The position numbers and the translations under genes were made by a program. Below, one piece after another: positions 3,011 through 58,212 of a stretch of 64,000 nucleotides of DNA. The first letter of the stretch is position 1; each line of letters starts with the position of its first letter. Below the pieces are notes generated by a model that was not told the origin of the DNA, made no database searches, and saw only the letters and a program-made list of their open reading frames with translations. Origin of the DNA: a virus (lineage: Duplodnaviria > Heunggongvirae > Uroviricota > Caudoviricetes); the IMG/VR virus record IMGVR_UViG_3300032053_000031. One strand, 5' to 3'.

Positions 3011-3012
3011 AT

Positions 3013-3464: not shown

Positions 3465-3629
3465 CGATTTGATGTGGGGTGTGTCGCGAGACACATTGCA
3501 AGACGGACTGGGCCATGAACTCCTTACGAAAACGGACCATCAATCCAAGTAGTAAGGAACTAGCGATAAGCCCATTGCGCTGGAGACATTGTTGGGGTGA
3601 TACCTGACATACTTCTCCTGCCCACATCT

Positions 3630-7717: not shown

Positions 7718-7721
7718 ATAT

Positions 7722-16652: not shown

Positions 16653-16695
16653 CCAACCCCGCTTTTTTAAGATGGAAAAGGAGTATTATATTTAG
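16653..16695 (+). promoter_or_regulatory. conserved intergenic element (copy 1 of 3): CCCCGCTTTTTT...GGAAAAGGAGTATTATATTTAG
   Basis: Near-identical to 32461..32500 and 57211..57256; sits about 25 nt upstream of the next ATG. Reads as a terminator-like GC/T-run followed by a TATTATAT -10-like box. Confidence 0.5.
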
Positions 16696-18699: not shown

Positions 18700-18738
18700 A
18701 ATGCTGCCCACCCACCATAGAGGTGGGTGGGCAGCATT
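18700..18738 (+). terminator. perfect 17-bp inverted repeat (aatgctgcccacccacc-ataga-ggtgggtgggcagcatt) downstream of MoxR gene
   Basis: Seen directly in the sequence; GC-rich stem with no U-tract. Confidence 0.5.
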
Positions 18739-31085: not shown

Positions 31086-31156
31086 GCCGGCGTAGCTCAA
31101 TGGTAGAGCAGCGGTTTTGTAAACCGCCTACGGGGGTTCGATTCCTCTCGCCGGCT
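31086..31156 (+). tRNA. tRNA-Thr (anticodon TGT), CCA not encoded
   Basis: Acceptor gccggcg/cgccggc; D-arm gctc-aatggta-gagc; anticodon stem gcggt/accgc with loop ttTGTaa; T-loop ttcgatt. Confidence 0.7.
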
Positions 31157-31164: not shown

Positions 31165-31377
31165 ATGAAGACAAAGTTATGTTGCATTGTTAATCCTTAT
31201 TTTAAGTGTACTGACTGTGAGTGGAGGCTGTGTTACACCTGCTTTATGATTCAACCATCGCATGGAGAGACATATATTGAAGAATGTAATGCCTACAAAA
31301 GTAGTGCTATGTGGATACACTTCAAGGAATGTAGAGACTGTTTCCTTAAAAATAGAAGAAGTGTAGCAGTAGCTTAA
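31165..31377 (+). CDS. LCC-family small Cys-rich protein
   Basis: MKTKLCCIVNPYFKCTDCEWRLCYTCF. Confidence 0.65.
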   Translation: MKTKLCCIVNPYFKCTDCEWRLCYTCFMIQPSHGETYIEECNAYKSSAMWIHFKECRDCFLKNRRSVAVA

Positions 31378-32460: not shown

Positions 32461-32500
32461 CCACCCCGCTTTTTTGTTGGGGAAAAGGAGTATTATATTA
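32461..32500 (+). promoter_or_regulatory. conserved intergenic element (copy 2 of 3)
   Basis: ccaccccgcttttttgttggggaaaaggagtattatatta; 19-nt core identical to copy 1. Confidence 0.5.
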
Positions 32501-32514: not shown

Positions 32515-32790
32515 ATGAATACCAAAGCGTTCACATTAATTGAATTAATGATAGTCGTGGCTATAGTAGGCATACTCTTAGCTATTGCCGCTCCTAAGAT
32601 AGCTCAGGTTGTTCACTGTGGCGGCTCCAAGAAGAAAAGCCTCGAGTGTTCAGAGTTCATGAGGAAGCAGGGAATGGAAAATAATTCTCAGTCTCAGCCT
32701 GTGAAACAAACGACAAACAACACCAACTGCGAACAGCTTGACGAGCTGATCGTGAAGTGCAGTGGACATGTATACAAGCGCCTCGACTAA
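32515..32790 (+). CDS. type IV pilin-like protein (prepilin-type N-terminus)
   Basis: MNTKAFTLIELMIVVAIVGILLAIAAPK matches the class III signal/N-methylation motif (FTLIE with E+5); GGGAGGGAG RBS. Confidence 0.55.
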   Translation: MNTKAFTLIELMIVVAIVGILLAIAAPKIAQVVHCGGSKKKSLECSEFMRKQGMENNSQSQPVKQTTNNTNCEQLDELIVKCSGHVYKRLD

Positions 32791-32975
32791 TGAAAAAGAA
32801 GTGGTGTCCAAATCTTTGCTGCCGGGTAAAACCTGTCATAGGCTGTTATGAATGCGACCGCTTCGTCTGTGAAGATTGTTACAGGAAATACTTCGGAGGA
32901 TGCTTCTTCTCCAAAATAGACGGTCACGATAGTCATTCTCTATGGTATGGAGAAGACTGGTACTCCTCCGAATGA
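32790..32975 (+). CDS. LCC-family small Cys-rich protein (MKKKW subgroup)
   Basis: MKKKWCPNLCCRVKPVIGCYECDRFVCEDCY; start overlaps the upstream stop by 1 nt. Confidence 0.55.
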   Translation: MKKKWCPNLCCRVKPVIGCYECDRFVCEDCYRKYFGGCFFSKIDGHDSHSLWYGEDWYSSE

Positions 32976-33220
32976 AAAAGAAGTGGGACCCTTGGCAGTG
33001 TATGGCGTTGGGGCACAAGTGGAGGAACTCTCGTTCCTACTGCTTTAGATGTAAAGCCCCTGCTCCAAGCACTCATATATCAACCGACAGATATGAATGG
33101 ATAAAAAAGAAACATCTCTGTTGTGAGATAAACAATATAGGTAAGTATTATGATAGACCTATCTGCGGAGACTGCTTAAAGAAACTTCGCCTCTCAGGTT
33201 CACCTAGAATACAACCATGA
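32972..33220 (+). CDS. LCC-family-related protein with internal LCC module (MKKKW subgroup)
   Basis: MKKKWDPWQC...CFRCKAP...KKKHLCCEINNIGKYYDRPICGDCL; its 5' end duplicates that of the upstream gene. Confidence 0.5.
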   Translation: MKKKWDPWQCMALGHKWRNSRSYCFRCKAPAPSTHISTDRYEWIKKKHLCCEINNIGKYYDRPICGDCLKKLRLSGSPRIQP

Positions 33221-33378
33221 AAGAAGAACTAAAAATAGATTGGAAAAAGATATTCAGAGGATACTTTTCATGGAAGTTTGTTGAGGAGTTTGCTCTACGG
33301 AAAGGAATAGGTTACTCTTTCTGGACCGCACTGAAGCATGCACTAGATGCTACCCTCGTTAGTCAACGGGATAACTAA
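33217..33378 (+). CDS. small hypothetical protein (53 aa)
   Basis: Short ORF not in the track; ATGA overlap; ends at the start of the radical SAM gene. Confidence 0.3.
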   Translation: MKEELKIDWKKIFRGYFSWKFVEEFALRKGIGYSFWTALKHALDATLVSQRDN

Positions 33379-34221
33379 ATGAAAATACAGACTATGTCGA
33401 TCGTGGTAGGGACCGAAGCTTGTAATGCCAAGTGCCCCTTCTGTGTAAGTAAGATGACCGGCAAGTATGATCTTCCCATTCCCACGTTTAAGAACTTCGA
33501 TAAGGCTTGTCAGTTCGCAAAGGATAGTGGAGTGTCAACTGTGCTACTCACAGGGAAAGGGGAACCTACTTTATATCCTTCACACATCACAACCTATCTG
33601 CACAGTCTCGAGAGGTATAAGTTTCCCTTCGTTGAACTGCAAACCAACGGGATCATATTAAACGATGGACTTCCTACGACCCTTTGGAATCAACTAGGGT
33701 TATCATTAATATGTCTATCCCTAGTTCACTATGAACAGAAAAAGAATAAAGCCATCTACGGAAAGTCTTACGACTTAGCTGAGAAGATAAAATGGTTACA
33801 CTCTCAGGGATTCTCCGTAAGAATGTGTATTATGATGCTTAAAGATTACGTTGACAACATGGAGGAAGTCTGGAAGATGATAGACTTCTGTAAGACAAAT
33901 GAAGTAGAGCAACTAACCATCCGCGCCGTAGAACAGCCTGCTGTATCTGCAGATAAGACCATCAGTGACTGGGTGACAGCGAATAGTCCTGATCGTGCCG
34001 AGATGGAACGTGTAGAGTTGACTCTTCATGATAAGGGTTCTCTACTAATGGAACTCCCTCATAGCGCAAAGGTCTTTGACGTAGAAGGTCAGAACGTTTG
34101 TTTTAGTACGTGTCTTACAATACGTCCTCAAGAGGGAACGGATAATATACGACAAATTATTTACTACCCCGACGGCCACATACGCTATGACTGGCGCTAC
34201 AAGGGAGCGATTCTTCTATGA
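33379..34221 (+). CDS. radical SAM domain protein (280 aa; activase/QueE-like architecture)
   Basis: N-terminal CNAKCPFC (CxxxCxxC) and GKGEPTLYP (GGEP-like) motifs. Confidence 0.65.
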   Translation: MKIQTMSIVVGTEACNAKCPFCVSKMTGKYDLPIPTFKNFDKACQFAKDSGVSTVLLTGKGEPTLYPSHITTYLHSLERYKFPFVELQTNGIILNDGLPTTLWNQLGLSLICLSLVHYEQKKNKAIYGKSYDLAEKIKWLHSQGFSVRMCIMMLKDYVDNMEEVWKMIDFCKTNEVEQLTIRAVEQPAVSADKTISDWVTANSPDRAEMERVELTLHDKGSLLMELPHSAKVFDVEGQNVCFSTCLTIRPQEGTDNIRQIIYYPDGHIRYDWRYKGAILL

Positions 34222-34394
34222 ACATTGATGAAAATGATAAGGAGACTGTCAAGCGTCTCAGAGAGTTTGTACAGGCGTTTGATGACATGGCCTTCTCATT
34301 TTTAGTATCGAGCGGAGGTCATCTTGATTCCGTCAAGCAGAGAGGATATGATAAAGCATTAGCGGCCCGTGTGAAAATAAACGACATAACATAG
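34218..34394 (+). CDS. small hypothetical protein (58 aa)
   Basis: Short ORF not in the track; ATGA overlap with the radical SAM stop. Confidence 0.35.
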   Translation: MNIDENDKETVKRLREFVQAFDDMAFSFLVSSGGHLDSVKQRGYDKALAARVKINDIT

Positions 34395-34396
34395 AT

Positions 34397-34597
34397 ATGA
34401 ATGTGATATCTCAAAGACTTTGTTGCTCCTTAAGAGGGGATATGTTATGTCTGAAGTGTTGGAGACGCTATTGTCTCTCCTGTATGGAACAGCTTCATCA
34501 TTCATCTCATTGTGAGGACAGTCACATAGTCTGTTATTGTGGCGCAACGGGAAAGCAAAGATGGCGAAATATTAAATGGAACGAAGTCTACCCCTAA
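34397..34597 (+). CDS. LCC-family small Cys-rich protein
   Basis: MNVISQRLCCSLRGDMLCLKCWRRYCLSCM. Confidence 0.6.
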   Translation: MNVISQRLCCSLRGDMLCLKCWRRYCLSCMEQLHHSSHCEDSHIVCYCGATGKQRWRNIKWNEVYP

Positions 34598-34791
34598 TGA
34601 AATTACATCGTCTACTTTGTAAGGCACTAGGCCACGAAAGATTTTATACTCCTGGGTTTGGTTTTAATCTTAAGTGTCTCCGGTGTAGTCAATCTCTTTG
34701 TAGAGACTGCGGATGTAATACAAGACCAGGCCAAGGAAGTGCTAGATGTAAATCCTGTTGGAATGATCGCCGAGCAGAGAAATGTCTGTGA
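34576..34791 (+). CDS. divergent LCC-family-related Cys-rich protein
   Basis: ...LLCKALGHERFYTPGFGFNLKCLRCSQSLCRDCG. Confidence 0.4.
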   Translation: MERSLPLMKLHRLLCKALGHERFYTPGFGFNLKCLRCSQSLCRDCGCNTRPGQGSARCKSCWNDRRAEKCL

Positions 34792-34982
34792 ACCTCATCA
34801 ATCAATCTAATGTACGAGCTCTTCTCCGTAATCTTCAAAAGAGAACGAGCCAAGAGTTCTTAGAACAACTCAATAGCGAAGTTGCTAGAATGGTGAAGAG
34901 GGCTTCGCGTAACGCAACGAAGAAACACAAACGGTCTCATCATACCGTTAAAGCGGAAGACCTTAGATGGGAGTGGGCGTAA
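34782..34982 (+). CDS. hypothetical basic protein
   Basis: Track ORF. Confidence 0.35.
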   Translation: MSVNLINQSNVRALLRNLQKRTSQEFLEQLNSEVARMVKRASRNATKKHKRSHHTVKAEDLRWEWA

Positions 34983-35099
34983 CATGTCTTACACAGATAA
35001 GTCTCTTCCTTTTGTACGTAGCCATTTAATAGTCACTCTTAAGAGAATAGTTCTCTTAAAGAGAGGACGGATGTGTCCTGAATGTAAACAACCGGAGAT

Positions 35100-35345
35100 A
35101 TGGTCATGACGACTCTCAAAGAACAAATCAGGAAAGTCATTATAGATATTATCTCTAAAAGACAGCGACTATGTTGCACAATTCATCCAGAGCATGTTTG
35201 TAACAAATGTAACTATACACTGTGCAATTTATGTTGTAGTGCCTTACGGGGAATAGATTCTGCTAATGAAGGAAAAAACTTGGTATATGACGACCATCTT
35301 TTGCACACCCCCAACTGTAAGGGACAGGTGAGGTCTAAGATATGA
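35100..35345 (+). CDS. LCC-family small Cys-rich protein
   Basis: ...KRQRLCCTIHPEHVCNKCNYTLCNLCC. Confidence 0.6.
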   Translation: MVMTTLKEQIRKVIIDIISKRQRLCCTIHPEHVCNKCNYTLCNLCCSALRGIDSANEGKNLVYDDHLLHTPNCKGQVRSKI

Positions 35346-35599
35346 TCATCGAATCCAGAGGAGATGGTACCGATCTTTGTTGTATGATACATCCTTTTGG
35401 GATATGTGTTAAGTGTAAACTCACTGTCTGTTTAGAACACTGGGGTGATGAAGTACGCAGAGAGCAAGGTCTGCTATCATTATCAATGTCTACCTTAAAC
35501 AGAGAAATAGGTATAGCTATTTGTCCTGAATGCAGTGTTGGTATGTGTCAGCTGGAATATTCAAAAGATTTCATCCCAAAGGACTTTAAAGTTAAATAA
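35342..35599 (+). CDS. LCC-family small Cys-rich protein (GDGTDLCC subgroup)
   Basis: MIIESRGDGTDLCCMIHPFGICVKCKLTVCLEHW; shares an identical 36-nt stretch with 40488. Confidence 0.65.
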   Translation: MIIESRGDGTDLCCMIHPFGICVKCKLTVCLEHWGDEVRREQGLLSLSMSTLNREIGIAICPECSVGMCQLEYSKDFIPKDFKVK

Positions 35600-35600
35600 C

Positions 35601-36719
35601 ATGCAAAACTTAAACGCTTACTTTATCGATCATATGTTCTGGGACTTCCCTAAGCTTCTTGAAGCTCATGCGGAAAGGAATCTGGTTAAGCTAAAGCAGT
35701 CCAAAAGGTTCCCTCATCTGTCTATACTTCATTATTCCGATGAGATAATCTACAGCAGAGCTACATGGACTCCCTTTGCGAAGGCGTGTCGAGGCGTTAT
35801 AATCGATCGGAAGAACAAGAAGATTCTAGCTAAGCCATTCTCTAAGTTCTTTAATTTAGGGGAAAAGGAAGCCCCTTCTATAAAGGATTTGGAAAAAAAG
35901 TCCGGATACACGGTTACCGAAAAGTTAGACGGCTCCATGATCATAGCCTACTATGATGAAGAAACCAATAAGTTTTATATGTCCACGAAGGGAGATCTTG
36001 ACTCTGAGCATGGTCAGTATGCAACGCCGTTGTTTCCTCCGCAGTTAATGGATAAGAAATTAATAACTTCTCATACTCTGATGTTCGAACTGATATGTAA
36101 AAAGTATCAGATCGTTATTCCTTATGATAAGAAAGGCTATGAAGAGGGGCTTTATCTTATTGGCATAAGAGAAAATACATCTGAGAAGTTATTCTCTCCC
36201 AAGGAAGTACAGGCCTTTGCGAAAGAATTTGGTCTGCGAACGTATAAGACGTACGACTATCCTACTCTCGATTCTATAGTCGAAGGAGTAAAGACTCTCC
36301 CCTTTACCGAAGAGGGCTTCGTTGTCAGATTCGATGGCGACGAGACTATGGTAAAGATAAAGTCACCTGAATATTTACGAGTACACAGGTTCGTTTCTAA
36401 TCTTACATCTCGCAACCTTTTAGATATCGTTATCGAAGGCGAAGAGAAAAATGTACTAGACAATCTATATCTAGTACCTGAAGAGTACCGTGAAGATGTT
36501 AGGAACGCTATAGAAGGCTATGTCAAGGATGCTTACATCTTTAGAAAAGAGTGTTACGACCTCTTTGCCAAAGCCCCTAAGGGGAGCAGAAAAGAATATG
36601 CTCTTTGGGTAGCTCATTCAACTCCTACGGACTATAAAAAGTTTTTGTTCAACATCTTTGATAACGAACCGATAGAACTAAAGGACATCTACATTCACTT
36701 CAGAAAGACAAAGCGATGA
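35601..36719 (+). CDS. ATP-dependent RNA/DNA ligase-family nucleotidyltransferase (Rnl2-like)
   Basis: Motif I KLDGS (KxDG); motif IV-like EGFVVR; motif V VKIKS; 372 aa; start is an internal Met of track ORF 35535..36719. Confidence 0.55.
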   Translation: MQNLNAYFIDHMFWDFPKLLEAHAERNLVKLKQSKRFPHLSILHYSDEIIYSRATWTPFAKACRGVIIDRKNKKILAKPFSKFFNLGEKEAPSIKDLEKKSGYTVTEKLDGSMIIAYYDEETNKFYMSTKGDLDSEHGQYATPLFPPQLMDKKLITSHTLMFELICKKYQIVIPYDKKGYEEGLYLIGIRENTSEKLFSPKEVQAFAKEFGLRTYKTYDYPTLDSIVEGVKTLPFTEEGFVVRFDGDETMVKIKSPEYLRVHRFVSNLTSRNLLDIVIEGEEKNVLDNLYLVPEEYREDVRNAIEGYVKDAYIFRKECYDLFAKAPKGSRKEYALWVAHSTPTDYKKFLFNIFDNEPIELKDIYIHFRKTKR

Positions 36720-37000
36720 ACAAGTGGAAAGATGATGGAACGGACTTATGTTGTCTTATGAGTCCGATACGTGTATGTTTAAATTGTGGAAGGAGATTTT
36801 GTAATATTCATTGGTGGGATCCACATAGAGAGAAGGAAGGACTACATACAATACCTCAACTAACAAAAGACTATTTTAGTCATAATAGTAACGACGTATT
36901 TAAGAATGATAACTACAGCTACTCCGTTATATGTCCAAATTGTCACTACCATGGAGATTCTTCCTTCTCTAAGAGGTTCAAATACGTTACGGAAAACTAA
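36716..37000 (+). CDS. LCC-family small Cys-rich protein (GDGTDLCC subgroup)
   Basis: MNKWKDDGTDLCCLMSPIRVCLNCGRRFCNIHW. Confidence 0.65.
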   Translation: MNKWKDDGTDLCCLMSPIRVCLNCGRRFCNIHWWDPHREKEGLHTIPQLTKDYFSHNSNDVFKNDNYSYSVICPNCHYHGDSSFSKRFKYVTEN

Positions 37001-37311
37001 TGAAAAACAACCTCTGCTGCCAAGTAAATCCTAAGAAGAAGTGTTTGTTCTGCAAAAAGATGGTCTGCGAAGAGCATGAGTTCTGTACAGACAAATGCAG
37101 CGCTTCCTACAATGAACGAGTAAGGGTTCGTGTTTCATATAGAAAGTGGAAGAGAATGTGTGAACTTCTTCAGAAAGGAATATCACCCAAAATAGTGCTT
37201 AGGTTGATACACTCCCAACTGGATAACGCACGTGCCTTTAAGTCTCAAAGAAATTCAGATTGGTCTCTAGAGAGTCTGGATTTAGTCTGTGAAGATCTCG
37301 GAGTGAAATAA
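37000..37311 (+). CDS. LCC-family small Cys-rich protein
   Basis: MKNNLCCQVNPKKKCLFCKKMVCEEHE. Confidence 0.65.
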   Translation: MKNNLCCQVNPKKKCLFCKKMVCEEHEFCTDKCSASYNERVRVRVSYRKWKRMCELLQKGISPKIVLRLIHSQLDNARAFKSQRNSDWSLESLDLVCEDLGVK

Positions 37312-37844
37312 TGAGTATAACACCTGAACAAATTAAGTTCGCAGAGTGTAATTACTTCGGGAAGAGAAACGTTGAGGAACTCTCTGCAGAGAGGGAATGT
37401 ATTAAAAGAAGTGAGCGCGTCATCAAAAGGTCATTGAAGAAACAAAAAATGTGTGAAACAAATATCGAAGAGATGAGTCGTCCAGAGTTCGTCGCAGAGA
37501 CGAAGAAAAAGATCGAGACTGTACTCGATGAAGCTGTTAAGATGGGTATTAAGATCCATGGTAAGAAAGATTTCTTTGGAGATAAGAGCATCTGGAATAT
37601 TGGAAATATAATGCTAGCTACCTATAATAAGGGCGAAGTTAATATACCTTTAGAAGGGGATTTGTTAGTCTCTAAGAAAGGAGAGGTAGCTCTTATTTTC
37701 ATAAAGGAAAGGAAAGAAGGGGGATACTACTACTATCGTCGTAGTGCACGTTCTGCAGGAGACTTTGTCATCTTTAGTTTTAACTATGCCAAAAAGCTTT
37801 CTGTTAGGAATAATGTTCTTCGATATCTAATGAAGAGGGATTAA
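37311..37844 (+). CDS. hypothetical protein
   Basis: 177-aa track ORF. Confidence 0.45.
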   Translation: MSITPEQIKFAECNYFGKRNVEELSAERECIKRSERVIKRSLKKQKMCETNIEEMSRPEFVAETKKKIETVLDEAVKMGIKIHGKKDFFGDKSIWNIGNIMLATYNKGEVNIPLEGDLLVSKKGEVALIFIKERKEGGYYYYRRSARSAGDFVIFSFNYAKKLSVRNNVLRYLMKRD

Positions 37845-38330
37845 ATGGAAAAGGCGATAGACGTAGTTATTTCTTCCGCTGTTCAGAATAATGAATATCT
37901 TCTTAAACGTAATAAGGAACAACTTATCTATTTAGAAAGTAGAGTTATCAGGATCAACAAGAGGATAGAGGGATGTAAGAAACATATAGAGGCCTTGGAG
38001 AAGCCGGAACTAACTTCCCTTCTTAAGGAGAGGGCTAAGAGGGTCTTTGATAAGGCTGCTAAAGAAGGTATAGAGTTAAAGGAGAAGATAGGATCTTCTC
38101 ATTTGTTTGATGGTACATATAAGAAAGACAACGTTAGTGTACAACTTCATTGTAACTTAAATGTAGACTGTGAAGATGGAATAGTTTCTTTAAGTTGTAC
38201 AGCGGTACTTCCTATTTCCAAGGAAAGATATTACCGACAACATAAAGAGGTATTTCGTATAACCGCTGGGAAGAACTTTATCTTTAAGAATCAAGTTCTT
38301 CAGTTTCTACTTGAAAGTGCAAGGACATGA
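37845..38330 (+). CDS. hypothetical coiled-coil protein
   Basis: 161-aa track ORF. Confidence 0.45.
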   Translation: MEKAIDVVISSAVQNNEYLLKRNKEQLIYLESRVIRINKRIEGCKKHIEALEKPELTSLLKERAKRVFDKAAKEGIELKEKIGSSHLFDGTYKKDNVSVQLHCNLNVDCEDGIVSLSCTAVLPISKERYYRQHKEVFRITAGKNFIFKNQVLQFLLESART

Positions 38331-38515
38331 CAAAATTAGAAATGACAATATTACTAGACAAGATTCTTAAAGAGAAACGACTCTGCTGTCTAGTAAAAGC
38401 CTATCTGAAATGTACTGGATGCAATGCAGTCATTTGTGAGGAATGTAATAAACCTGTCGTATATGTTCAAGGAAAATGTAACCCAGAACTGTGGCATGAT
38501 TGGAGGATGGTATGA
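38327..38515 (+). CDS. LCC-family small Cys-rich protein (LKEKRLCC subgroup)
   Basis: ...[30 protein letters not shown]. Confidence 0.6.
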   Translation: MTKLEMTILLDKILKEKRLCCLVKAYLKCTGCNAVICEECNKPVVYVQGKCNPELWHDWRMV

Positions 38516-38769
38516 TTTGCAATTGCAAGTACTGCAAAGTAGCCTCAGGTGTTCGTAGATATGATGTGAACAAAGAGTACGCGCACGAAGTAGCGCGCAT
38601 CCATCAATTTCGTTCAAAGTCTAAAGACGACGGACACTTCCGGCAATTGCTGATAACAAGAGCTGGAAGGTGCTCAGAGCCGAAGCTTCGTCGGTTTATT
38701 GGAGCTCTTGAGGATATGGGTCTTCCCGAAGTTTCGGGTTTTGTTAGAATGATAATGTTAAACAAATGA
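38500..38769 (+). CDS. hypothetical protein
   Basis: Track ORF; CNCKYCK. Confidence 0.4.
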   Translation: MEDGMICNCKYCKVASGVRRYDVNKEYAHEVARIHQFRSKSKDDGHFRQLLITRAGRCSEPKLRRFIGALEDMGLPEVSGFVRMIMLNK

Positions 38770-39005
38770 ATAATCTATGTTGTCTTGTGCATCCATTTGT
38801 TTGGTGTTACAAATGTCAGATGATACTCTGCTGGGAATGTTGGAGTAGAATCTACGGCGATATATTCAGGTCCAGTGATGATAATTGTGAACCCTCAATA
38901 CCTGGAGATATGCCAAGTGGCTATTGGTTTCATTCTAACTTTAGTCCCAATTGTTGGTTAAAGGGTAATGATATTGATGTGAATGAAAGTGGGAGAACTA
39001 AATGA
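38766..39005 (+). CDS. LCC-family small Cys-rich protein
   Basis: MNNLCCLVHPFVWCYKCQMILCWECW. Confidence 0.65.
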   Translation: MNNLCCLVHPFVWCYKCQMILCWECWSRIYGDIFRSSDDNCEPSIPGDMPSGYWFHSNFSPNCWLKGNDIDVNESGRTK

Positions 39006-40108
39006 CAATGTCAAACTGGCCCGTACTATATAAGCAAACAAGCACTGGAAAAGTACAACAGTGGAAGGTTTCCGTTGAAGAGAGTGTGGTCTTCACTGAA
39101 TATGGACTAGTAGATGGTAAACTTCAAACGACAGTTGATAGAGTTAAAGAAGGAAAGAACCTTGGAAGATCTAATGAGACCACTCCGGATTCTCAAGCTC
39201 TTCTTCAAGCTCAGCAGTGCTTCGACGGCAAGCTGAAAGAGGGCTACGTTGAGAATAAAGACGTAGCTGCGACGACAAAGAATACGCTTGATGCGATCGA
39301 GCCCATGTTAGCTCATCCCATTGAGAAGAAAGAAAAGTATGTAACCTATCCGGCTCTTGGCCAGCCGAAGTTAGATGGTCTTCGGTGTATCGCCATAATG
39401 AAGAATGGAAAGGTTCGATTATTCTCTAGGACGCAGAAGGAATATAAGACTCTTCCTCACATCATTGCTGAGATAGAGAAGTTGTTCGGAGGACATAAGA
39501 ATTTAATTCTCGACGGAGAACTATACAATCACAGTCTGAAGAAAGACTTTAACAAGATCACTTCTCTCATTAAAAGAGATGAGGTACATCCATCTCATAA
39601 AGATATTCAGTATCACATCTACGACGTAGTCGCTAAGGGTTCATATCCCGTAAGAACAAATCCACTTCAAGTCCTTTCCGGAGACTTCTGTAAGAAAGTC
39701 GAAACGGTCCTCATTGAGTCGAGGGTGGAGTTGGAAAAGTATCAAGCTCTGTGCGTCGAGAAAGGTTATGAAGGGTGTATGTACCGCCGCATGGACGCAG
39801 AGTATGAGCACAAGAGGAGCTCTGGACTTTTAAAGGTAAAGTCATTCGTTGACGCAGAGTTCAAAATAGTTGACATGGAGGAGGGTTGTGGTAAGCTGAT
39901 GGGTAAGGTTGGAGCTTTCTACTGTGAAATAGGTGGACAGCGATTTAAGGCGAAACCAGCCTGTACCGAAGAACAATCCCAGGACTATTGGATTCGCAAG
40001 ACTGATTGTATTGGTAAAATGGCTACTATCAAATATCAGAATCTAACTCCGGCAGGAATTCCTCGTTTTCCTATATTAAAGACTATAATAGATTATGATT
40101 ACAGATAA
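39002..40108 (+). CDS. ATP-dependent DNA ligase
   Basis: Motif I KLDGLR (KxDGxR); motif III ILDGELY; motif V LLKVK; 368 aa. Confidence 0.7.
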   Translation: MTMSNWPVLYKQTSTGKVQQWKVSVEESVVFTEYGLVDGKLQTTVDRVKEGKNLGRSNETTPDSQALLQAQQCFDGKLKEGYVENKDVAATTKNTLDAIEPMLAHPIEKKEKYVTYPALGQPKLDGLRCIAIMKNGKVRLFSRTQKEYKTLPHIIAEIEKLFGGHKNLILDGELYNHSLKKDFNKITSLIKRDEVHPSHKDIQYHIYDVVAKGSYPVRTNPLQVLSGDFCKKVETVLIESRVELEKYQALCVEKGYEGCMYRRMDAEYEHKRSSGLLKVKSFVDAEFKIVDMEEGCGKLMGKVGAFYCEIGGQRFKAKPACTEEQSQDYWIRKTDCIGKMATIKYQNLTPAGIPRFPILKTIIDYDYR

Positions 40109-40128
40109 ATACCGCCTCGGGTGCGACC

Positions 40129-40491
40129 ATGAATCAGTCACAGAACTTTAAAGAAACTATCTGTAAAGCCGTAGGACACAATCCTATTTCGGGACATCCC
40201 GGAATATGTGACAGATGTTTTAAAGTAGATGAGATACAAATAATTAAGGCTATAGCAGAATTTAGTAAGATAGATCTTCTTATAACAAAAGATTCTAGAC
40301 TAAAAGATCTGAAAGTAGATGGCATTGATTTTTTGGAAATTGTAATGGCTCTTGAGGAGTCATTAGACATTGAGATACCTGATGAAGCTTTTGGCATAGT
40401 CTTAGATGGAGACGTTGTTCCTGATTTGTCTGTTCAGGACATAGCTAATAGACTTAATAATCTAGTGGATAGCTGGAGGATATCCCAATGA
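40129..40491 (+). CDS. hypothetical protein (TICKxVGH motif)
   Basis: ETICKAVGHNPISGHPGICDRC; motif shared with 60162. Confidence 0.4.
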   Translation: MNQSQNFKETICKAVGHNPISGHPGICDRCFKVDEIQIIKAIAEFSKIDLLITKDSRLKDLKVDGIDFLEIVMALEESLDIEIPDEAFGIVLDGDVVPDLSVQDIANRLNNLVDSWRISQ

Positions 40492-40757
40492 AAGGAGATG
40501 GTACCGATCTTTGTTGTATGATACATCCCATTCGAAAGTGTATCTATTGTGGAATAGGCCATTGTAATGATCATTGGTGGGACTGTTGCCGAACTAGTCA
40601 AGGACTAAACATTCTACCGGGTCATGGAAGTAATTGTATTAAATGTGGGAAAGCTACTCCTTATAAAGCAATCAGTAGTGGTCTCACCTACAGTGTAGTA
40701 CATTCTCTTGTATGTCAGCAGCGGCAAGCGCAAGGATGGATCACAAATGACCAGTGA
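40488..40757 (+). CDS. LCC-family small Cys-rich protein (GDGTDLCC subgroup)
   Basis: MKGDGTDLCCMIHPIRKCIYCGIGHCNDHW. Confidence 0.65.
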   Translation: MKGDGTDLCCMIHPIRKCIYCGIGHCNDHWWDCCRTSQGLNILPGHGSNCIKCGKATPYKAISSGLTYSVVHSLVCQQRQAQGWITNDQ

Positions 40758-41253
40758 TGAAGCGGCGTCTTTAAGAAAGTGGGATAAGATAAAGTATATA
40801 GGACCTATCTACAAGAAGAATGGTGACTACCGCCACGCCTATACTACCGTTAAAAGAAGAGTAGTTCATGTAGCTAGACCTCCCTATATGCAAGCAGCAG
40901 CTCCAGAATTATCTAATATGTTACGCTTATGGATTGATATAAGTCCCCTCTATCTTGAAAGTATGTGGTTCAATCCTAAGGATTGGGAATTAGTAGAAAG
41001 ATGGGCTGTATCTAAAGATGTAGCATATGCCCGCAAGTATGTACCAAGAGCCATTAAGGGCTTAGTAAAAGCAGTCAAGGCACAACAAGAATCTTATAAA
41101 GGAAGGATCGACGAGTGGCTTAATAAGATATCTCTTCATGAGAAGATGCAAATACTTACAGGGCTTACTGCTGAGGAACGAAGAATATTTGATTTCATGT
41201 ACAGTGATGTAGAGGGGATGTTAAAAGAAAATGAAACTAACCAAGGAGAATAA
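40747..41253 (+). CDS. hypothetical protein
   Basis: Internal Met of track ORF 40708..41253. Confidence 0.4.
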   Translation: MTSDEAASLRKWDKIKYIGPIYKKNGDYRHAYTTVKRRVVHVARPPYMQAAAPELSNMLRLWIDISPLYLESMWFNPKDWELVERWAVSKDVAYARKYVPRAIKGLVKAVKAQQESYKGRIDEWLNKISLHEKMQILTGLTAEERRIFDFMYSDVEGMLKENETNQGE

Positions 41254-41367
41254 AATGTGGTACTTAGTTACTTTTGTAGCAGGGATGATAGCCGGAGGTG
41301 CAGTAATCTTCTTACGCGGTAAGATCATGAAGTCGGCCGCAGACGCTCTTAACAAAGCATCGGACAA

Positions 41368-41589
41368 ATGAAAAAGTGTCTGTCCTGTCTCGTGAAGCCT
41401 CATGTCACATGCTCTATATGTACAGAGAGATGGTGTAGACACTGTTGGGATCACGAAGGGGCCCCTCGACACTTTCCGGATGATCTCTGGGCCATCAACA
41501 TCTTGGACAGGAGTATTCACGGGGCAGTCGAATGGAAAGGAACAAACCCGTACATATTAGTTTTAAGGGAAGGAGATACGAAACGCTAG
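41368..41589 (+). CDS. LCC-family (CLxC variant) small Cys-rich protein
   Basis: MKKCLSCLVKPHVTCSICTERWCRHCW. Confidence 0.6.
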   Translation: MKKCLSCLVKPHVTCSICTERWCRHCWDHEGAPRHFPDDLWAINILDRSIHGAVEWKGTNPYILVLREGDTKR

Positions 41590-41665
41590 ACAACGAAGAC
41601 AATCCTAGGTCGTCTTCTAGAGCTAATGGTCCCCGTAAGGGCGTATCTTCTCCCCTTCTAATCTT

Positions 41666-41854
41666 ATGAATGAAAGAACACTACTTGCTAGAGTCTTAAA
41701 GGAAAAAAGACTGTGCTGCTACCTTCATCCTAAAGTAAGATGCACTGCATGTAATGTAATGCTCTGTGATGATTGTGATAAAGAAACAGGGCCAGAAGTA
41801 GGTTTTTGTAATGGAATTATTAAGCATCATTGGTCTTATTCTATGGAACTATAG
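41666..41854 (+). CDS. LCC-family small Cys-rich protein (LKEKRLCC subgroup)
   Basis: ...[30 protein letters not shown]. Confidence 0.6.
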
Positions 41855-41862
41855 GAGGCGAA

Positions 41863-42471
41863 ATGGGTGTATTCATACCGCAGGTAATCGAGAAGTCAAA
41901 TCAGTCTTCGGTAATCGGTTATGATATTTATTCCCGATTACTTAAGGACCGTATCATCTTCGTAGGAGGTTATGAAGGAGAGATAGCGACGGACTCAGCT
42001 AATAGCTTAATCGCTCAGCTTCTCTATTTAGATGCAGAGGATTCTGGTAGGGATATCAACCTCTACATTAATAGTCCAGGAGGTATGGTAACCGCTGGTC
42101 TTGCGGTATATGATACCATGCAGTACATCAAGTCGCCTATTACAACCATCTGCATGGGCATGGCGATGTCGTTCGGCGCGGTTCTTCTTGCTGCGGGAAC
42201 AAAGGGAAAGAGGTTCGCTCTTCCTCAGTCACGCATCATGATCCACCAGCCCTTAATCTATGGCGGCGGGATTTCTGGACAGGCTACAGAAATCGAGATC
42301 GAAGCGAACGAGATGAAGAAGACCAAGCAAATTCTCAATGGAATCATTGCTAAGCATACTGGACAGACTCCGGAGAAGGTAGAACATGACATGGAGAGAA
42401 ACTATTACATGTCTGCGGAAGAAGCCAAGGCATACGGCATCATTGACATAGTCTTAACGACACGGAAATAA
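41863..42471 (+). CDS. clpP: ClpP ATP-dependent protease proteolytic subunit
   Basis: GGAGG RBS then ATG 41863; catalytic Ser in [14 protein letters not shown]; catalytic His in MIHQP; overall ClpP fold signature. Confidence 0.85.
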
Positions 42472-42527
42472 GTATCAGGGAGGTTAGCTCAACATAGGTT
42501 CTATCCCTATACCTCCCATACAATTTT

Positions 42528-42743
42528 ATGAAAGAGTGTCTAGCCTGTCTCATACATCCTATTGTCAAATGTAACGTCTGCGGGGAAAGATGGTGTGAAA
42601 AATGTTGGTACTCACGGAAATATCAAGATCATTTTCCAGGAGAAGATTCAAGTAAAGGAATGCATGGCCTAATGAAATGGGGCAAATCAGAGGAAGATGT
42701 TCTCACGGTAGAATTATTCGAAGAAATAAGGAAGGAAAAATAG
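42528..42743 (+). CDS. LCC-family (CLxC variant) small Cys-rich protein
   Basis: MKECLACLIHPIVKCNVCGERWCEKCW. Confidence 0.6.
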   Translation: MKECLACLIHPIVKCNVCGERWCEKCWYSRKYQDHFPGEDSSKGMHGLMKWGKSEEDVLTVELFEEIRKEK

Positions 42744-42744
42744 T

Positions 42745-43755
42745 ATGGCGACCTTCAAAGCTGAAGTAGTAAAAGTAGAAGTAACTAATCATCCGAATGC
42801 AGATCGCCTTGACTTAATCAAGGTAAAGGGCTGGCAGTGTGTCAGTCAGAAGGGTCAGTTCAAGACGGGCGATTTAGCAGTCTATCTACCTATCGATTCA
42901 GTATTACCCGAAGCATTAGTAAAGGCTCTCGGCATTGAAAAGATGTATCACAAGAAGCTTCGTACCATTAAGCTTCGTGGATCCATCTCTCAGGGGATAG
43001 TCGCCAAGTTAGACATCAATCCTTCATATCCTACAATGTACGAGGGCGGTGTCACTGAGGGTATTGACTTCACTCAAGATCTAGGTATCACTAAATGGGA
43101 AGAGCCCATCCCCGTGCAAATGAGGGGAAAGGTTAGGCAGACTGATCCTAACTTTATTCGTTATACGGACATTGAGAACTACAAGAACTACCCCAATTCT
43201 TATTCAGAAGGTATAATGGTAGTCGCAACGGAAAAGATACATGGAACTAACTTCCGAGTAGCTAACATAGATGGAGTGATCCATGTAGGTAGCCATCGGA
43301 TGGATCTCTGCGAGGAAGAAAACAATCTCTATTGGAGAGCTGCAGAAATTCTAAAGGCCAAAGAGAAGCTTCTTCCTGGAGAGCAAGTCTTTGCGGAGGT
43401 ATATGGTTCTGGTGTTCAAGATTTGAACTACGGATTAAAGAGTGGACAGATAAATGTTGCTATCTTTGATATTTGGAAGGACTCAAAGTTCTTAGACTAC
43501 ACTGACTACATACAATATCTTCTAGCTAAAGGCTGGCAAGATCTAGCGACACCTGTTGTCTACATGGGAGAATGGAATTTAGATCTTCCCAAGATGTCGG
43601 ATGGTCAATCAATTCTTTGTCCTGATCAAATTCGGGAAGGAATTGTTATTCGTCCAATGCAAGAAGCATGGAGTCCTTATTTAAACGGGAGACTTATTAT
43701 TAAATGTGTAAGTGACACTTACCTTTTAAGAAAAGAAGGAACAGAGAGGCACTAA
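42745..43755 (+). CDS. RNA ligase-family protein with N-terminal tRNA-binding-like OB domain (Rnl5/DraRnl-like)
   Basis: N-terminal OB-fold signature VVKVEVTNHPNADRLDLIKV...GDLAVYLP; nucleotidyltransferase motif I-like EKIHGTN (Kx[DHN]G). Confidence 0.5.
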   Translation: MATFKAEVVKVEVTNHPNADRLDLIKVKGWQCVSQKGQFKTGDLAVYLPIDSVLPEALVKALGIEKMYHKKLRTIKLRGSISQGIVAKLDINPSYPTMYEGGVTEGIDFTQDLGITKWEEPIPVQMRGKVRQTDPNFIRYTDIENYKNYPNSYSEGIMVVATEKIHGTNFRVANIDGVIHVGSHRMDLCEEENNLYWRAAEILKAKEKLLPGEQVFAEVYGSGVQDLNYGLKSGQINVAIFDIWKDSKFLDYTDYIQYLLAKGWQDLATPVVYMGEWNLDLPKMSDGQSILCPDQIREGIVIRPMQEAWSPYLNGRLIIKCVSDTYLLRKEGTERH

Positions 43756-43756
43756 A

Positions 43757-44731
43757 ATGTCCATGGAAGAATTTGGAAAAGATCTTGCTGGCAAAGAGGA
43801 GAACACCAAAGCTGCAGCTGCTACTCCTACTCCACCCCTTTTGGCTACAGTAGTTAATGATGGCCTTCAACAGTGGACTGCACACGGGGATTGTTATAAG
43901 GCAGTTGGTAAAACACAAGCTAAACTTCCAGCAGGTAGCTACTTACTGGGTGAGAATAATCAGGGGGAGATACTCTTCACTCGCAGAGAGATTGTGGTAG
44001 ATGAATTACTGGAATTTCCTGATTCAGTTAGCGCGGCTATACTTCAAGAGATTGATGACTTCTGGGCGAAAGGTTCTCTCTTCAAGGAGTATAAGTTCCT
44101 TCACCGCCGAGGTTATTTATTGTATGGTCCCGCTGGTGGAGGTAAAACTTGTATAGTACAATCTGTTATTCATAGAATTATATCTGCTGGAGATATAGTT
44201 TTATCAGGACAAATCCCCTGGCTTCTAACAAGAGCTTTAGTGGTTCTTCGAACAGTCGAGCCTCGTAGACGTGTCGTCTGCGTCTATGAAGACATAGATG
44301 CTATTCTAAAAGAGAGAGGAGAAGAAAGTCTCTTAGCCGTCTTGGATGGCGAAAATCAGATCGACAAAGTATTAAATATTGCTACGACAAACTATCCGGA
44401 ACGTTTGGATAAAAGGCTTGTAGCCCGTCCTCGTAGATTTGATAGGGTAATTAAAATAGGTATGCCGGGAGCTGCTGTAAGGGAATTATATCTCAAAAAG
44501 AAGCTAGGTATTGGTAACCCTGAATTAGACAAATGGGTAACTCATACAGAAGGATTTTCCTTTGCATCACTAGCTGAGTTAGTTATCAGCGTCAAGTGTT
44601 TAGGAAATGACTTTAGTCAAGTGGTTAAGATCCTCTCTGAGATGCAAACAAAGAAAGTATCTAGCGGAGAGTTTGATGCAATACCTGTAGGGGGATTCAA
44701 AGCTAATGGGGAAAAAATCCTTAGCAACTAA
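43757..44731 (+). CDS. AAA+ ATPase
   Basis: Walker A GPAGGGKT; Walker B VCVYEDIDA; 324 aa. Confidence 0.7.
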   Translation: MSMEEFGKDLAGKEENTKAAAATPTPPLLATVVNDGLQQWTAHGDCYKAVGKTQAKLPAGSYLLGENNQGEILFTRREIVVDELLEFPDSVSAAILQEIDDFWAKGSLFKEYKFLHRRGYLLYGPAGGGKTCIVQSVIHRIISAGDIVLSGQIPWLLTRALVVLRTVEPRRRVVCVYEDIDAILKERGEESLLAVLDGENQIDKVLNIATTNYPERLDKRLVARPRRFDRVIKIGMPGAAVRELYLKKKLGIGNPELDKWVTHTEGFSFASLAELVISVKCLGNDFSQVVKILSEMQTKKVSSGEFDAIPVGGFKANGEKILSN

Positions 44732-44969
44732 TTTATGTTGTCTCATACATGGAGACTCTTTAGATGGATTCTGCCCTCGATGTCCCAACTACGGAAAGAT
44801 ATTTTGTGAGGATCATAGCGACAGCTTCTGTCCGATATGTAAAGCATTACTCTATTCACGAGGGGCTAATCTGCGAGATATAGCATGTCAGACGACTCCT
44901 ACTATAAAAGATTGTAAGAATTGTGCAGTATGGAAACGTATTAAAAATGAAACTAAAAAACAACTGTAG
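44706..44969 (+). CDS. LCC-family small Cys-rich protein
   Basis: ...LATNLCCLIHGDSLDGFCPRCPNYGKIFCEDH. Confidence 0.6.
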   Translation: MGKKSLATNLCCLIHGDSLDGFCPRCPNYGKIFCEDHSDSFCPICKALLYSRGANLRDIACQTTPTIKDCKNCAVWKRIKNETKKQL

Positions 44970-45171
44970 ATATGCTACGTGTGAAAACGTTCCGAGATGT
45001 AGAAGAAAGAATCCGGACTATTGTCCTTATGACGGACATAGTGAAGATATAAGAGATGGGTGCAACCCATTCAAAGAGTATGAGTGGGAAGATCACTGCT
45101 GGATCTGCGACGAACACTATAGACTTTTAGAATTTATTCGTAACCATGTGAATGATGAAAAGGTAATATGA
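44923..45171 (+). CDS. hypothetical Cys-rich protein
   Basis: Track ORF. Confidence 0.35.
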   Translation: MQYGNVLKMKLKNNCRYATCENVPRCRRKNPDYCPYDGHSEDIRDGCNPFKEYEWEDHCWICDEHYRLLEFIRNHVNDEKVI

Positions 45172-45380
45172 AAGATAATCTATGCTGTATGGTTCATAGA
45201 GCCGTGAGATGTACTTTTTGTGGTGCATCTTATTGCAACATGTGTTATGGCAAAACATTCGGAATGGACTACAGACAAAGACCTCCTTGTCAGAAACGCC
45301 CTCTAGGTGAAGAGGATATGGTTAACTTCACAGGACATTGGTTTCAATTCTATCGGGGAGCCTTAATCACCACAAAATGA
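45168..45380 (+). CDS. LCC-family small Cys-rich protein
   Basis: MKDNLCCMVHRAVRCTFCGASYCNMCY. Confidence 0.65.
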   Translation: MKDNLCCMVHRAVRCTFCGASYCNMCYGKTFGMDYRQRPPCQKRPLGEEDMVNFTGHWFQFYRGALITTK

Positions 45381-45628
45381 AAAGATTTCCTACGGGAAGG
45401 ATGTATGGTAGCTCTCGCGTTGAAGTGTTACATCCTGATCTTTGCTGTATAGTAAATCCATTCGTCAGATGTATCTATTGTCGTAATGTAGTATGTGAAG
45501 AATGTCTCGCTAAATGTTGGCCTCCCCGAACTGTTGGAATGTGTTGTGTCTGGTCCTCAAAGAAAACTCCGGGGTTAGCAGATAGAGAGGGTTGTATTGT
45601 TTGTTCATGGGAGTTTCTATATCAATGA
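45377..45628 (+). CDS. LCC-family small Cys-rich protein
   Basis: ...HPDLCCIVNPFVRCIYCRNVVCEECL; ATGA overlap. Confidence 0.6.
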   Translation: MKRFPTGRMYGSSRVEVLHPDLCCIVNPFVRCIYCRNVVCEECLAKCWPPRTVGMCCVWSSKKTPGLADREGCIVCSWEFLYQ

Positions 45629-45949: not shown

Positions 45950-46282
45950 ATGCGAAACAATTGTTTAGTATGTGCAATAAATCCTCGTGTTAGATGTTTA
46001 ACTTGCAATGCAGGTCTCTGCACAGAGTGTAGAGATAAAGAATTGCTATCTCCTGGACAAAGGCGTAAACGCGCTGGAGGGGATGAATACTCTCAATGTC
46101 CAATGTGTAAGACGTGGGGAGGTTGGATTGATCCAGAATACAACGCAAGAGAGAAACTTCCCTCATATGGTATACACACCTGTGATTGTGGTATTACAAT
46201 GGTAATAACTTTTGCAGGTGAACAACCTTGTCTATGTAATAAACTATTTAAAGGGGAATATACCCATGCCCGTCAAAGGTGA
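45950..46282 (+). CDS. LCC-family (CLxC variant) small Cys-rich protein
   Basis: MRNNCLVCAINPRVRCLTCNAGLCTECR. Confidence 0.55.
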   Translation: MRNNCLVCAINPRVRCLTCNAGLCTECRDKELLSPGQRRKRAGGDEYSQCPMCKTWGGWIDPEYNAREKLPSYGIHTCDCGITMVITFAGEQPCLCNKLFKGEYTHARQR

Positions 46283-47447
46283 GTTAAAAGGAAATGGCGT
46301 TCCGGTTAAACTTTGGACTGAACTTGCTTCGGTAGAGTCTGAAGCGTTAACCCAGTTAAAGAATGTATCAGGACTACCCTTCGTAATGAATCACGTTGCG
46401 GTCATGCCCGATTGTCATGTGGGAAAAGGAGCTACAGTTGGCTCGGTTATTGCTACCCAGGGAGCAGTCATTCCTTCAGCGGTCGGAGTAGATATAGGTT
46501 GTGGAATGTCGGCTGTTAAGCTAAAAGGGATTACGGTTAGTAGTCTTGGAGACTTAGCTGTCCTTCGCCATTCGATTGAGAGATCAGTTCCTACTGGCTT
46601 TAGCGGTAATAGTCGTGTGGGTAAGGATGTTAAGGGTTGGGAAGGTTGGGATGAATTCTCAAAGCTTCATCCTGACATTCAGAAGGAAATGAGTGACGCT
46701 CAGACTAAACTTGGTTCTCTGGGTGGAGGCAATCACTTTATTGAAATCTGTAAGGACCCTACTGATAATGTATGGGTTATGTTACATTCCGGTTCTCGTA
46801 ACATAGGATTGAAGATTGCTAACATCTATATCAAGAAGGCGAAAGAATTAATGTCACAGATGTATATTCAACTTCCCGATAGAGAATTAGCATATTTGCC
46901 TGCAACTGATATTTCGTATAGTAATTATCTCCGGGATCTTAACTGGGCTCAGTCTTATGCATTCAAGAATAGAGAACTGATGCGTGAAAGGATCTTGAAA
47001 GATATCTTCTTCGCCGTTGGAAAAGAGCCCTTCGACTTAGAGATGGAAGTAAACTGTCATCATAACTTTGCCGCAATGGAGCATCATTATGGACAGAATG
47101 TCCTTATCACTCGTAAGGGCGCAATTCGGGCTCGCGTTGGTGAGTTGGGTATTATTCCTGGGTCTATGGGTACTAAATCGTTCATCGTGCGTGGTCTGGG
47201 CAATCCCTTGTCTTTTGAGTCTAGCTCACATGGTGCTGGCCGGAGAATGTCTAGATCGGCAGCAAAGAGGACTTTCACGGAAGAAGATATCGCGAAACAA
47301 TTAGCTGGTATCGAGTGTCGTAAGGACAAAGGTATCATCGATGAACTTCCTGGAGCTTACAAAGATGTGGATGTAGTAATGGCTAACCAGAACGATCTGG
47401 TAGAAGTAGTAACGGAACTGAAGCAGATCATGTGTATCAAGGGATAA
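46266..47447 (+). CDS. rtcB: RtcB RNA-splicing/repair ligase
   Basis: Metal-site motifs PDCHVGKG, GGGNHFIEI, HNFAA, SSSHGAGRR (C-terminal His); start is an internal Met of track ORF 46212..47447; 393 aa. Confidence 0.9.
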   Translation: MPVKGELKGNGVPVKLWTELASVESEALTQLKNVSGLPFVMNHVAVMPDCHVGKGATVGSVIATQGAVIPSAVGVDIGCGMSAVKLKGITVSSLGDLAVLRHSIERSVPTGFSGNSRVGKDVKGWEGWDEFSKLHPDIQKEMSDAQTKLGSLGGGNHFIEICKDPTDNVWVMLHSGSRNIGLKIANIYIKKAKELMSQMYIQLPDRELAYLPATDISYSNYLRDLNWAQSYAFKNRELMRERILKDIFFAVGKEPFDLEMEVNCHHNFAAMEHHYGQNVLITRKGAIRARVGELGIIPGSMGTKSFIVRGLGNPLSFESSSHGAGRRMSRSAAKRTFTEEDIAKQLAGIECRKDKGIIDELPGAYKDVDVVMANQNDLVEVVTELKQIMCIKG

Positions 47448-57211: not shown

Positions 57212-57256
57212 ACCCCACCTCGCTTTTTAAAGATGGAAAAGGAGTATTTAATTTAG
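57211..57256 (+). promoter_or_regulatory. conserved intergenic element (copy 3 of 3)
   Basis: gaccccacctcgctttttaaagatggaaaaggagtatttaatttag; shares ttttaa(a)gatggaaaaggagtat with copy 1. Confidence 0.5.
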
Positions 57257-58173: not shown

Positions 58174-58212
58174 AGTAGATAGCCTCCGAGGTTACCTCGG
58201 AGGCTATCTACT
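58174..58212 (+). terminator. perfect 18-bp inverted repeat (agtagatagcctccgagg-tta-cctcggaggctatctact)
   Basis: Seen directly in the sequence; no U-tract follows. Confidence 0.5.

Follow-up and report, generated by a model that had tools for sequence, protein, structure and literature searches.

How can two genes share 36 consecutive identical nucleotides (nt) while the sequence on either side cannot be aligned at the DNA level? The question is raised by 64,000 nt of phage DNA (Caudoviricetes; IMG/VR record IMGVR_UViG_3300032053_000031), called the window here. The two genes, 35342 and 40488, are named after their first positions and belong to a large family of small proteins with a conserved LCC motif. 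Most probably, the shared block was left behind when ancient LCC paralogs underwent an interlocus (ectopic) gene conversion of the short-patch, non-crossover type. The evidence comes from the excess of identity within the block, from the older history of the genes as judged from distant phages and from an alternative allele of gene 40488 in the same phage population.

The Shared Block and Its Statistical Excess

The block AGGAGATGGTACCGATCTTTGTTGTATGATACATCC occurs exactly twice on the + strand of the window (0 matches in 100 shuffles). A preliminary description had noticed this identity between two LCC paralogs 5 kb apart, which is real, but had placed the first copy at 35358–35393, one position too early. 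The same description took the block to cover the ribosome-binding site, start region and LCC motif of both genes. For the first two this is not borne out, as both copies lie wholly inside coding sequence, with the in-frame product (R/K)GDGTDLCCMIHP, and each gene begins at an ATGA in which its start codon overlaps the stop of the gene before it. The features concerned are the following, with lengths in amino acids (aa).

35342–35599, + strand: gene 35342, LCC family, GDGTDLCC subgroup, 85 aa
35359–35394, + strand: copy A of the block and probable donor, from within codon 6 to within codon 18 of gene 35342, with the product (R)GDGTDLCCMIHP
40488–40757, + strand: gene 40488, LCC family, GDGTDLCC subgroup, 89 aa
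40493–40528, + strand: copy B of the block, from within codon 2 to within codon 14 of gene 40488; putative maximal conversion tract, limited by mismatches to gene 35342 at 40492 and 40529
36716–37000, + strand: gene 36716, third member of the GDGTDLCC subgroup, 94 aa

The window and the 10 kb beyond it, about 74 kb in all from a genome that measures at least 117 kb, contain no third copy. A 36-mer in which five variable sites (see below) were left open is absent from the GTDB genomes, so that there is no spacer-like or host match.

The pair stands out from all other similarity in the window. A self-BLAST of the window ranks it first among the direct repeats (71.9 bits, E 1e-12); a hairpin palindrome comes next, then a 28-nt intergenic motif and matches of at most 21 nt. 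The identity extends well beyond the approximately 12 nt needed to encode the motif, the point on which a dot-plot had been proposed as a check. When the search is restricted to the coding sequences of the family, the E-value of the pair is 3e-15. Among the 1,891 gene pairs of the family, the longest run in any other non-overlapping pair is about 19–21 nt. Moreover, the approximately 90 nt of ungapped flank of 35342 and 40488 are 43–44% identical, compared to 36/36 in the block. Not one of 100,000 column permutations yielded a run of 36 or more (P < 1e-5; analytic estimate about 1e-11). All synonymous positions within the block are identical between the two genes, and the chance of identical codon choice for the 11 identical whole-codon residues is about 9e-5. 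The peptide motif does not force this nucleotide identity, because gene 36716 encodes DGTDLCC as GAT GGA ACG GAC TTA TGT TGT, with synonymous choices that differ from those of the block.

Ancient Paralogy of the Two Genes

To place the two genes in time, distant phages are informative. A scan of Joint Genome Institute (JGI) metagenomes with a degenerate DGTDLCC pattern retrieved three contigs of 210 kb, 18.9 kb and 3 kb, in which genes of the GDGTDLCC subgroup lie among many other LCC genes. When the parts downstream of the LCC motif were compared among six proteins of the subgroup, the best score of gene 35342 was obtained with a distant-phage protein, L008 (104, vs. 81 for 40488). For gene 40488, the distant-phage protein L007b came first (128) and 36716 second (110), with 35342 only third. 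Because each gene scores best with its own counterpart in a distant phage, the split between 35342 and 40488 predates the divergence of these phage lineages, whose RNA ligases are just 53% identical. Judged by these scores, the tract and the flanks of 40488 give different trees: outside the tract, 40488 would group with L007b and 36716, and 35342 with L008.

In the related phages, the GDGTDLCC-subgroup genes still have recognisable counterparts, and so does at least one further member of the family, gene 25480 (53% identity). The two GDGTDLCC paralogs of a related phage use different synonymous codons, and their common stretch measures only 18 nt with 1 mismatch.

Two Alleles in One Phage Population

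The window is nearly identical to a metagenome contig of 117,657 bp from ENA, and shorter matching contigs come from other ENA samples and from JGI samples. At the block of gene 40488 these assembled contigs display two alleles. Contig L005, 609 nt long and obtained from another ENA sample, aligns with 40433–41042 at 97.5% identity; of the 14 substitutions, 5 are located within the block (binomial P 9e-4). In each of these five cases the nucleotide of the window is that of gene 35342. The two alleles differ in the encoded protein, LCC-IVN-P in L005 vs. LCC-MIH-P in the window, and additionally at two synonymous sites.

40502–40524, + strand: putative minimal conversion tract, spanning the L005-variable sites 40502, 40505, 40520, 40521 and 40524

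The window allele is also carried by contig L003, from a JGI sample, and by contig L002, which differs from the window by 46 single-nucleotide polymorphisms (SNPs) over 3.2 kb (98.6% identical overall, 1.4% diverged elsewhere). In total, the block is present in four independent assemblies from ENA and JGI samples, representing two strain backgrounds. Because the window allele is seen in independent assemblies, the patch is not an assembly artefact. The event is probably recent; the presumed converted (window, L002, L003) and unconverted (L005) alleles coexist in the same phage population.

The L005 allele of 40488–40757 (L005 56–295) has a further peculiarity: in codon 80 a nonsense mutation (C to T at window 40725) creates a stop, a 1-nt deletion comes after it, and the protein has 79 aa instead of 89. 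Its C-terminal tail may be dispensable.

A Possible Second Partner Gene and the Direction of Transfer

The L005 allele resembles yet another member of the family, gene 45377.

45435–45481, + strand: LCC-coding segment of gene 45377 (45377–45628), matching the allele of 40488 in L005; apparently a partner in an older exchange

The two sequences agree in 24/25 nt (E 8e-6 against the window); once gaps are allowed, the match covers 48 columns with 89.6% identity (E 5e-10 when only the coding sequences of the family are searched), which is the second strongest relationship in the family. The 45377-like stretch crosses the 3′ edge of the patch into TGTATCTATTGT (12/12 nt), which is kept in both alleles of 40488. 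When 45460–45481 is compared to 40529–40551, a shared ATTCG is followed by TGTATCTATTGT, and 10 nt between the good matches are offset by +1/−1 in frame (F-V-R vs. I-R-K), as if a frameshift within an old shared tract had been compensated.

In its sequence, the window allele is a chimera, 35342-like at its 5′ side and 45377-like at its 3′ side. Because of this chimeric make-up, the L005 state is favoured as the ancestral one. Counting events leads in the same direction, as a transfer from 35342 to 40488 needs two events in the history of these alleles and the reverse needs three. A transfer from 35342 to 40488 is therefore the somewhat more probable direction. Sequence exchange has probably affected the motif-coding segment of 40488 on at least two occasions.

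Short-Patch Gene Conversion as the Proposed Explanation

The proposed course of events has two steps. In an older exchange, 40488 and 45377 would have come to share the stretch that survives, partly decayed, as about 47 nt in the unconverted allele. Later, a tract of 23–36 nt from the LCC-coding segment of 35342 would have been copied over its homologous counterpart in 40488, which lies on the same strand 5.1 kb further downstream. The outcome would be a change from IVN to MIH in the three residues right after the invariant Cys-Cys, together with the two synonymous changes. The patch is of the non-crossover type, because divergence resumes at 40492 and at 40529, with flanks that are unalignable at the DNA level. 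Before the conversion, the block (L005 state compared to 35342) would have been identical at 31/36 positions, the longest perfect match being 14 nt (GATCTTTGTTGTAT). As to the molecular route, template switching or short single-strand annealing, at a replication fork or at a break, may have been involved, and is more plausible than RecA-type strand exchange.

Several observations weigh against gene conversion from 35342 as described. A perfect homology of 14 nt is below the usual requirement of RecA-type recombination, and no recombinase was recognised in the window; a RuvB-like gene, at 16318–17208 of L010, is located just beyond its 3′ end. Neither a strain variant of 35342 nor an outgroup at a useful distance was found to polarise the direction of transfer, and the 90% clusters of 35342 and its neighbours contain no variant members. 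The L005 allele could itself be derived by conversion from 45377, in which case the 36-nt identity would stem from an earlier conversion. Furthermore, strain differences are clustered elsewhere too: L002 has 15 SNPs in the 70 nt of 39910–39979, within a single-copy DNA ligase gene, and 20 SNPs in the 190 nt of 41383–41570, within the LCC gene 41368. Many of these SNPs are non-synonymous, and L002 has none at 40195–41079. Because of these clusters, the clustering of SNPs on its own could reflect recombination between strains. An ectopic donor is nonetheless needed for the block, because the window block matches the paralog 35342 perfectly. For the cluster in gene 41368, the paralogs 42528 and 9154 were considered as a source and rejected, since few sites match; inter-strain mosaicism or fast evolution of that LCC gene is more likely there.

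Other Explanations for the Identity

Part of the identity might follow from the protein, given that GDGTDLCC is conserved in the proteins of the subgroup and LCC across the whole family, and that matches of 15–21 nt at 'MKxxLCC' starts do occur between other members. That a conserved motif and codon bias produced the entire block by chance, with no transfer of sequence, is extremely unlikely, however. The agreement in codon choice is improbable even when the protein identity is taken as given, no other non-overlapping pair exceeds about 21 nt, and the M-I-H residues are not conserved in the L005 allele or in the counterparts from related phages. Selection at the DNA or RNA level could alternatively have kept a functional nucleotide element identical, be it a regulatory RNA structure, a target of a small or antisense RNA, a protein-binding site or a translation signal. 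Such an element would fit the sharp limits of the identity on both sides, the AGGAG with which the block begins and the GGTACC and GATC palindromes that it holds. It was nevertheless rejected as very improbable, because L005 has its five changes, two of them synonymous, within the block, because gene 36716 and the related-phage counterparts encode the same peptide with different codons, and because neither the block nor its two 96-nt contexts fold better as RNA than shuffled sequences do (z +0.6 to +1.05). Moreover, the AGGAG-ATG inside the block is out of frame and would open a reading frame of 7 codons only, and the block is found only twice in the window and the adjoining 10 kb. A recent duplication with very fast divergence outside the block, or an error of assembly, has nothing in its favour beyond the identity itself and has a negligible probability. 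The flanks are 43–44% identical and each gene has its own counterpart in distant phages, while the four independent assemblies from two strain backgrounds speak against an artefact, as does the fact that an assembler working with k=141 would not make a 36-nt patch within otherwise unique sequence.

The remaining alternative is a programmed or selected diversification, in which recombination at the conserved 5′ segment would shuffle N- and C-terminal modules, or entire gene cassettes, among the approximately 62 paralogs. The very large size of the family is in line with it, both exchange signals lie in the same short LCC-coding segment of one gene with two different partner genes, and the exchanged residues adjoin the invariant Cys-Cys, a plausible position for specificity. 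Most observations point the other way and make it unlikely. The signal is confined to a single gene (40488) of about 62, and the identity ends on both sides of the patch instead of continuing as a crossover chimera; a deletion chimera joining the N-terminus of 35342 to the C-terminus of 40488, such as recombination between the direct repeats might yield, was absent from the protein collection searched. All members (~62/~62) are complete + strand open reading frames (ORFs) with start codons, often translationally coupled, and there is no set of silent donors with a separate expression locus. Close strain contigs have neither indels nor presence/absence differences, and the related phages keep their counterparts of the GDGTDLCC genes and of at least one other member, as mentioned above. 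The self-BLAST contains no other long direct repeats between genes, and its inverted repeats are terminator-like hairpins. Finally, the allele differences are T/C, C/T, G/A, A/G and C/A, not adenine-specific as in diversity-generating retroelements, and no reverse transcriptase is present among the annotated large ORFs of the window and of the sequence just downstream.

Short-patch gene conversion is thus the part that stands of the earlier, broader proposal of ongoing duplication and gene conversion or cassette-like recombination. The LCC-coding segment holds an outlying patch that is bounded and polymorphic and whose other allele resembles another paralog. Ongoing duplication is contradicted by the closest pair of the family, at 48% protein identity (median 27%), and by the separate counterparts of the subgroup members in distant phages. 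Against cassette-like recombination stand the missing crossover chimeras, the immediate divergence of both flanks, and the lack of indels, of presence/absence variants and of silent cassettes. The conserved 5′ segment had also been suggested as a recombination substrate. The proposed conversion is indeed located in the LCC-coding segment, but this segment is not the ribosome-binding site or start.

The LCC Family of Putative Zinc Fingers

The family to which both genes belong is large. A strict motif, CC-x(4-14)-C-x2-C-x(2-8)-C-x2-[C/H], is present in 52 ORFs of the window. A hidden Markov model built from these 52 ORFs gave 64 hits on the + strand and 0 on the − strand, from which about 62 paralogs remain after two doubtful ones are dropped. 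Of all + strand ORFs in the window that have 35 aa or more, roughly one in four belongs to the family. The following lines give the extent of the family and some of its members and pairs.

833–57211, + strand: approximately 62 LCC paralogs, small (60–110 aa), for instance 31165–31377, 38766–39005 and 16219–16428
7535–8143, + strand: genes 7535–7717 and 7958–8143, the closest pair of paralogs, 48% protein and 59% DNA identity
41368–42743, + strand: genes 41368–41589 and 42528–42743, which, like gene 9154–9405, belong to the 'MKxCLxCL' variant subgroup
32789–32804, + strand: 16-nt match TATGAAAAAGAAGTGG with 32971–32986, at the starts of genes 32790 and 32972

The invariant positions are the L, the second Cys of LCC, the C-x2-C, a C and then a C or H. 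The ligand spacing, [CC or CxxC]-x7-C-x2-C-x4-C-x2-[C/H], is compatible with cross-brace zinc fingers. Matches in Pfam are all below threshold: zf-B_box is the best with 20.6 bits (cutoff 24.1), and ZZ, AN1 and others reach 10–16 bits (cutoff approximately 27). No Pfam family reached its gathering threshold for the LCC proteins, and PHROGs has no family for them. Weak profile matches in the PDB are to FYVE, HIT1 and HERC2-ZZ domains. An AlphaFold2 model has a mean pLDDT (predicted local distance difference test score) of 58 and is confident only for residues ~11–30; a Foldseek search with this model gave no match with E ≤ 0.001.

Within the window, the median protein identity in the family is 27%, and most genes lie far from their best-matching paralog (median distance 11 kb). 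Genes 7535 and 7958 are an old near-tandem duplication, similar along their whole length as had been described. The same had been said of 9154, 42528 and 41368, but the resemblance in this trio is restricted to the N-terminal CLxC zinc-finger part, with 22–26 identical residues and tails that are not alignable. The 5′ ends that 32790 and 32972 were thought to share come down to the 16-nt match listed above, which is at chance level for an A-rich start (E 0.82).

Outside the window, a profile search of 1.84 billion cluster representatives found 280 proteins at E ≤ 0.001, all of 54–172 aa, and all source contigs that were examined are phage-like. Dozens of LCC genes are present as well in the related contigs Ga0209208_10000012 (210 kb) and Ga0116231_10007980. 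In the metagenome representatives P0008, P0010 and P0013, two LCC domains are combined in one protein of 130–156 aa; such proteins may be fusions of adjacent family genes. A literature search yielded nothing on the LCC family or on comparable events in phages.

Genomic Context

The gene content of the window indicates a large phage. Essentially all genes are on one strand, and they include ClpP, a DNA ligase, radical SAM enzymes, a MoxR-like ATPase with a VWA protein, a phiEco32-type ligase and four tRNAs. No close relatives of the phage turned up in these collections: a megablast of 33000–45000 against INPHARED gave no match, and IMG/VR contained no relative that could be found via the DNA ligase or MoxR-like ATPase proteins or via two degenerate DGTDLCC patterns. 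The protein collection returned only the query proteins themselves and the L005 variant, and the nearest deposited phage proteins have less than 31% identity.

An RNA-repair and tRNA set comprises a CCA/poly(A) polymerase with an HD domain, a T4 Rnl1-type RNA ligase, a PHA02142-type RNA ligase, RtcB, Thg1 and the four tRNAs. Its unusual richness suggests a defence against host anticodon nucleases. Besides this set, the window contains a repeated intergenic motif, two palindromes and a pilin-like gene.

5748–7136, 35601–36719, 42745–43755, 46266–47447 and 62333–63091: RNA-repair genes
2846–3704 and 31086–31156: tRNAs
16655–16692, 32462–32499 and 57216–57253: three copies of the intergenic motif CCCCGCTTTTT..(7–10 nt)..GGAAAAGGAGTATTATATT, upstream of genes
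18700–18738 and 58174–58212: two GC-rich near-perfect palindromes of 39 nt each, directly after the genes ending at 18682 and 58166
32515–32790: protein of 91 aa with the N-terminal methylation motif of type IV pilins and pseudopilins (FTLIELMIVVAIVGILLAIAAP; Pfam N_methyl)

The intergenic motif consists of two exact 19-mers and one with 2 mismatches, where 0.01 would be expected, and looks like a phage promoter or a terminator–promoter junction. One copy of this promoter-like motif lies just upstream of the pilin-like gene. The 39-nt palindromes are terminator-like stem-loops without a clear T-run. In the related 210-kb phage contig, a diverged duplication of the VWA/metallopeptidase gene region is suggested by four short collinear matches between 1818–2748 and 6109–7036 of L009, each displaced by about 4,290 nt.

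Significance and Comparison with Known Systems

The mechanism proposed for the block is already of a known kind, and the event is real but ordinary. It illustrates cleanly how, in a phage genome, ectopic conversion can act on a very short tract between paralogs that have diverged strongly, with an outcome that is polymorphic in the population. A perfect homology of 14 nt in the motif-coding segment appears sufficient to seed the exchange, and one such event can alter residues beside putative zinc ligands in a single step. As a practical consequence, trees and orthology calls for the LCC family can be distorted at the motif. The undescribed LCC family itself, in an RNA-repair-rich region of an uncultivated large phage clade, is a more unusual feature than the patch.

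The interest of the patch would be greater only if the LCC segment were a recurrent exchange hot spot. Short-patch exchange would then swap the residues beside the Cys-Cys, a putative specificity loop, between more than 60 paralogs, and would generate population diversity in host-targeting or anti-defence proteins. The signals of two partners, 35342 and 45377, at one gene and the MIH/IVN polymorphism are compatible with such a hot spot but do not establish it, and it is considered improbable. It would be the phage analogue of the segmental gene conversion that underlies antigenic variation.

With respect to the proteins, the ligand spacing resembles that of cross-brace or treble-clef zinc fingers such as B-box, ZZ, AN1, HIT and FYVE, whereas the matches of the LCC proteins all remain under the curated thresholds and no fold match is significant. 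With respect to the exchange, the systems of pilE/pilS in Neisseria and vlsE in Borrelia are similar in that a target gene receives short segments from paralogous donors, with polymorphism in the population as a result. In contrast to the LCC genes, these systems have one expression site, silent promoterless cassettes, flanking repeats and a high switching rate. A closer phage parallel is offered by the tail-fibre adhesin genes of T-even phages, in which conserved 'His-box' motifs are reportedly points of exchange, as Tetart, Desplats and Krisch are said to have described in 1998. There too, short conserved coding motifs are the place of exchange between diverged phage homologues, but in that case crossovers located at the motifs exchange entire domains between co-infecting phages and alter the host range. 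In the window, a patch within the motif would have been copied between paralogs of one genome, and no domain swap is seen.

The closest resemblance is to interlocus gene conversion of the type detected by GENECONV in bacterial, yeast and animal gene families. Divergence at the level of the flanks, about 44% identity, normally suppresses gene conversion. The block shares with the known cases a non-reciprocal patch in diverged paralogs, sharp boundaries, a conflict between the trees of tract and flanks and polymorphism at the putative acceptor. It differs from them in its very short tract of 23–36 nt, in flanks of about 44% identity, in a prior perfect match of 14 nt and in its setting, an uncultivated large phage in which one gene out of approximately 62 is the acceptor.

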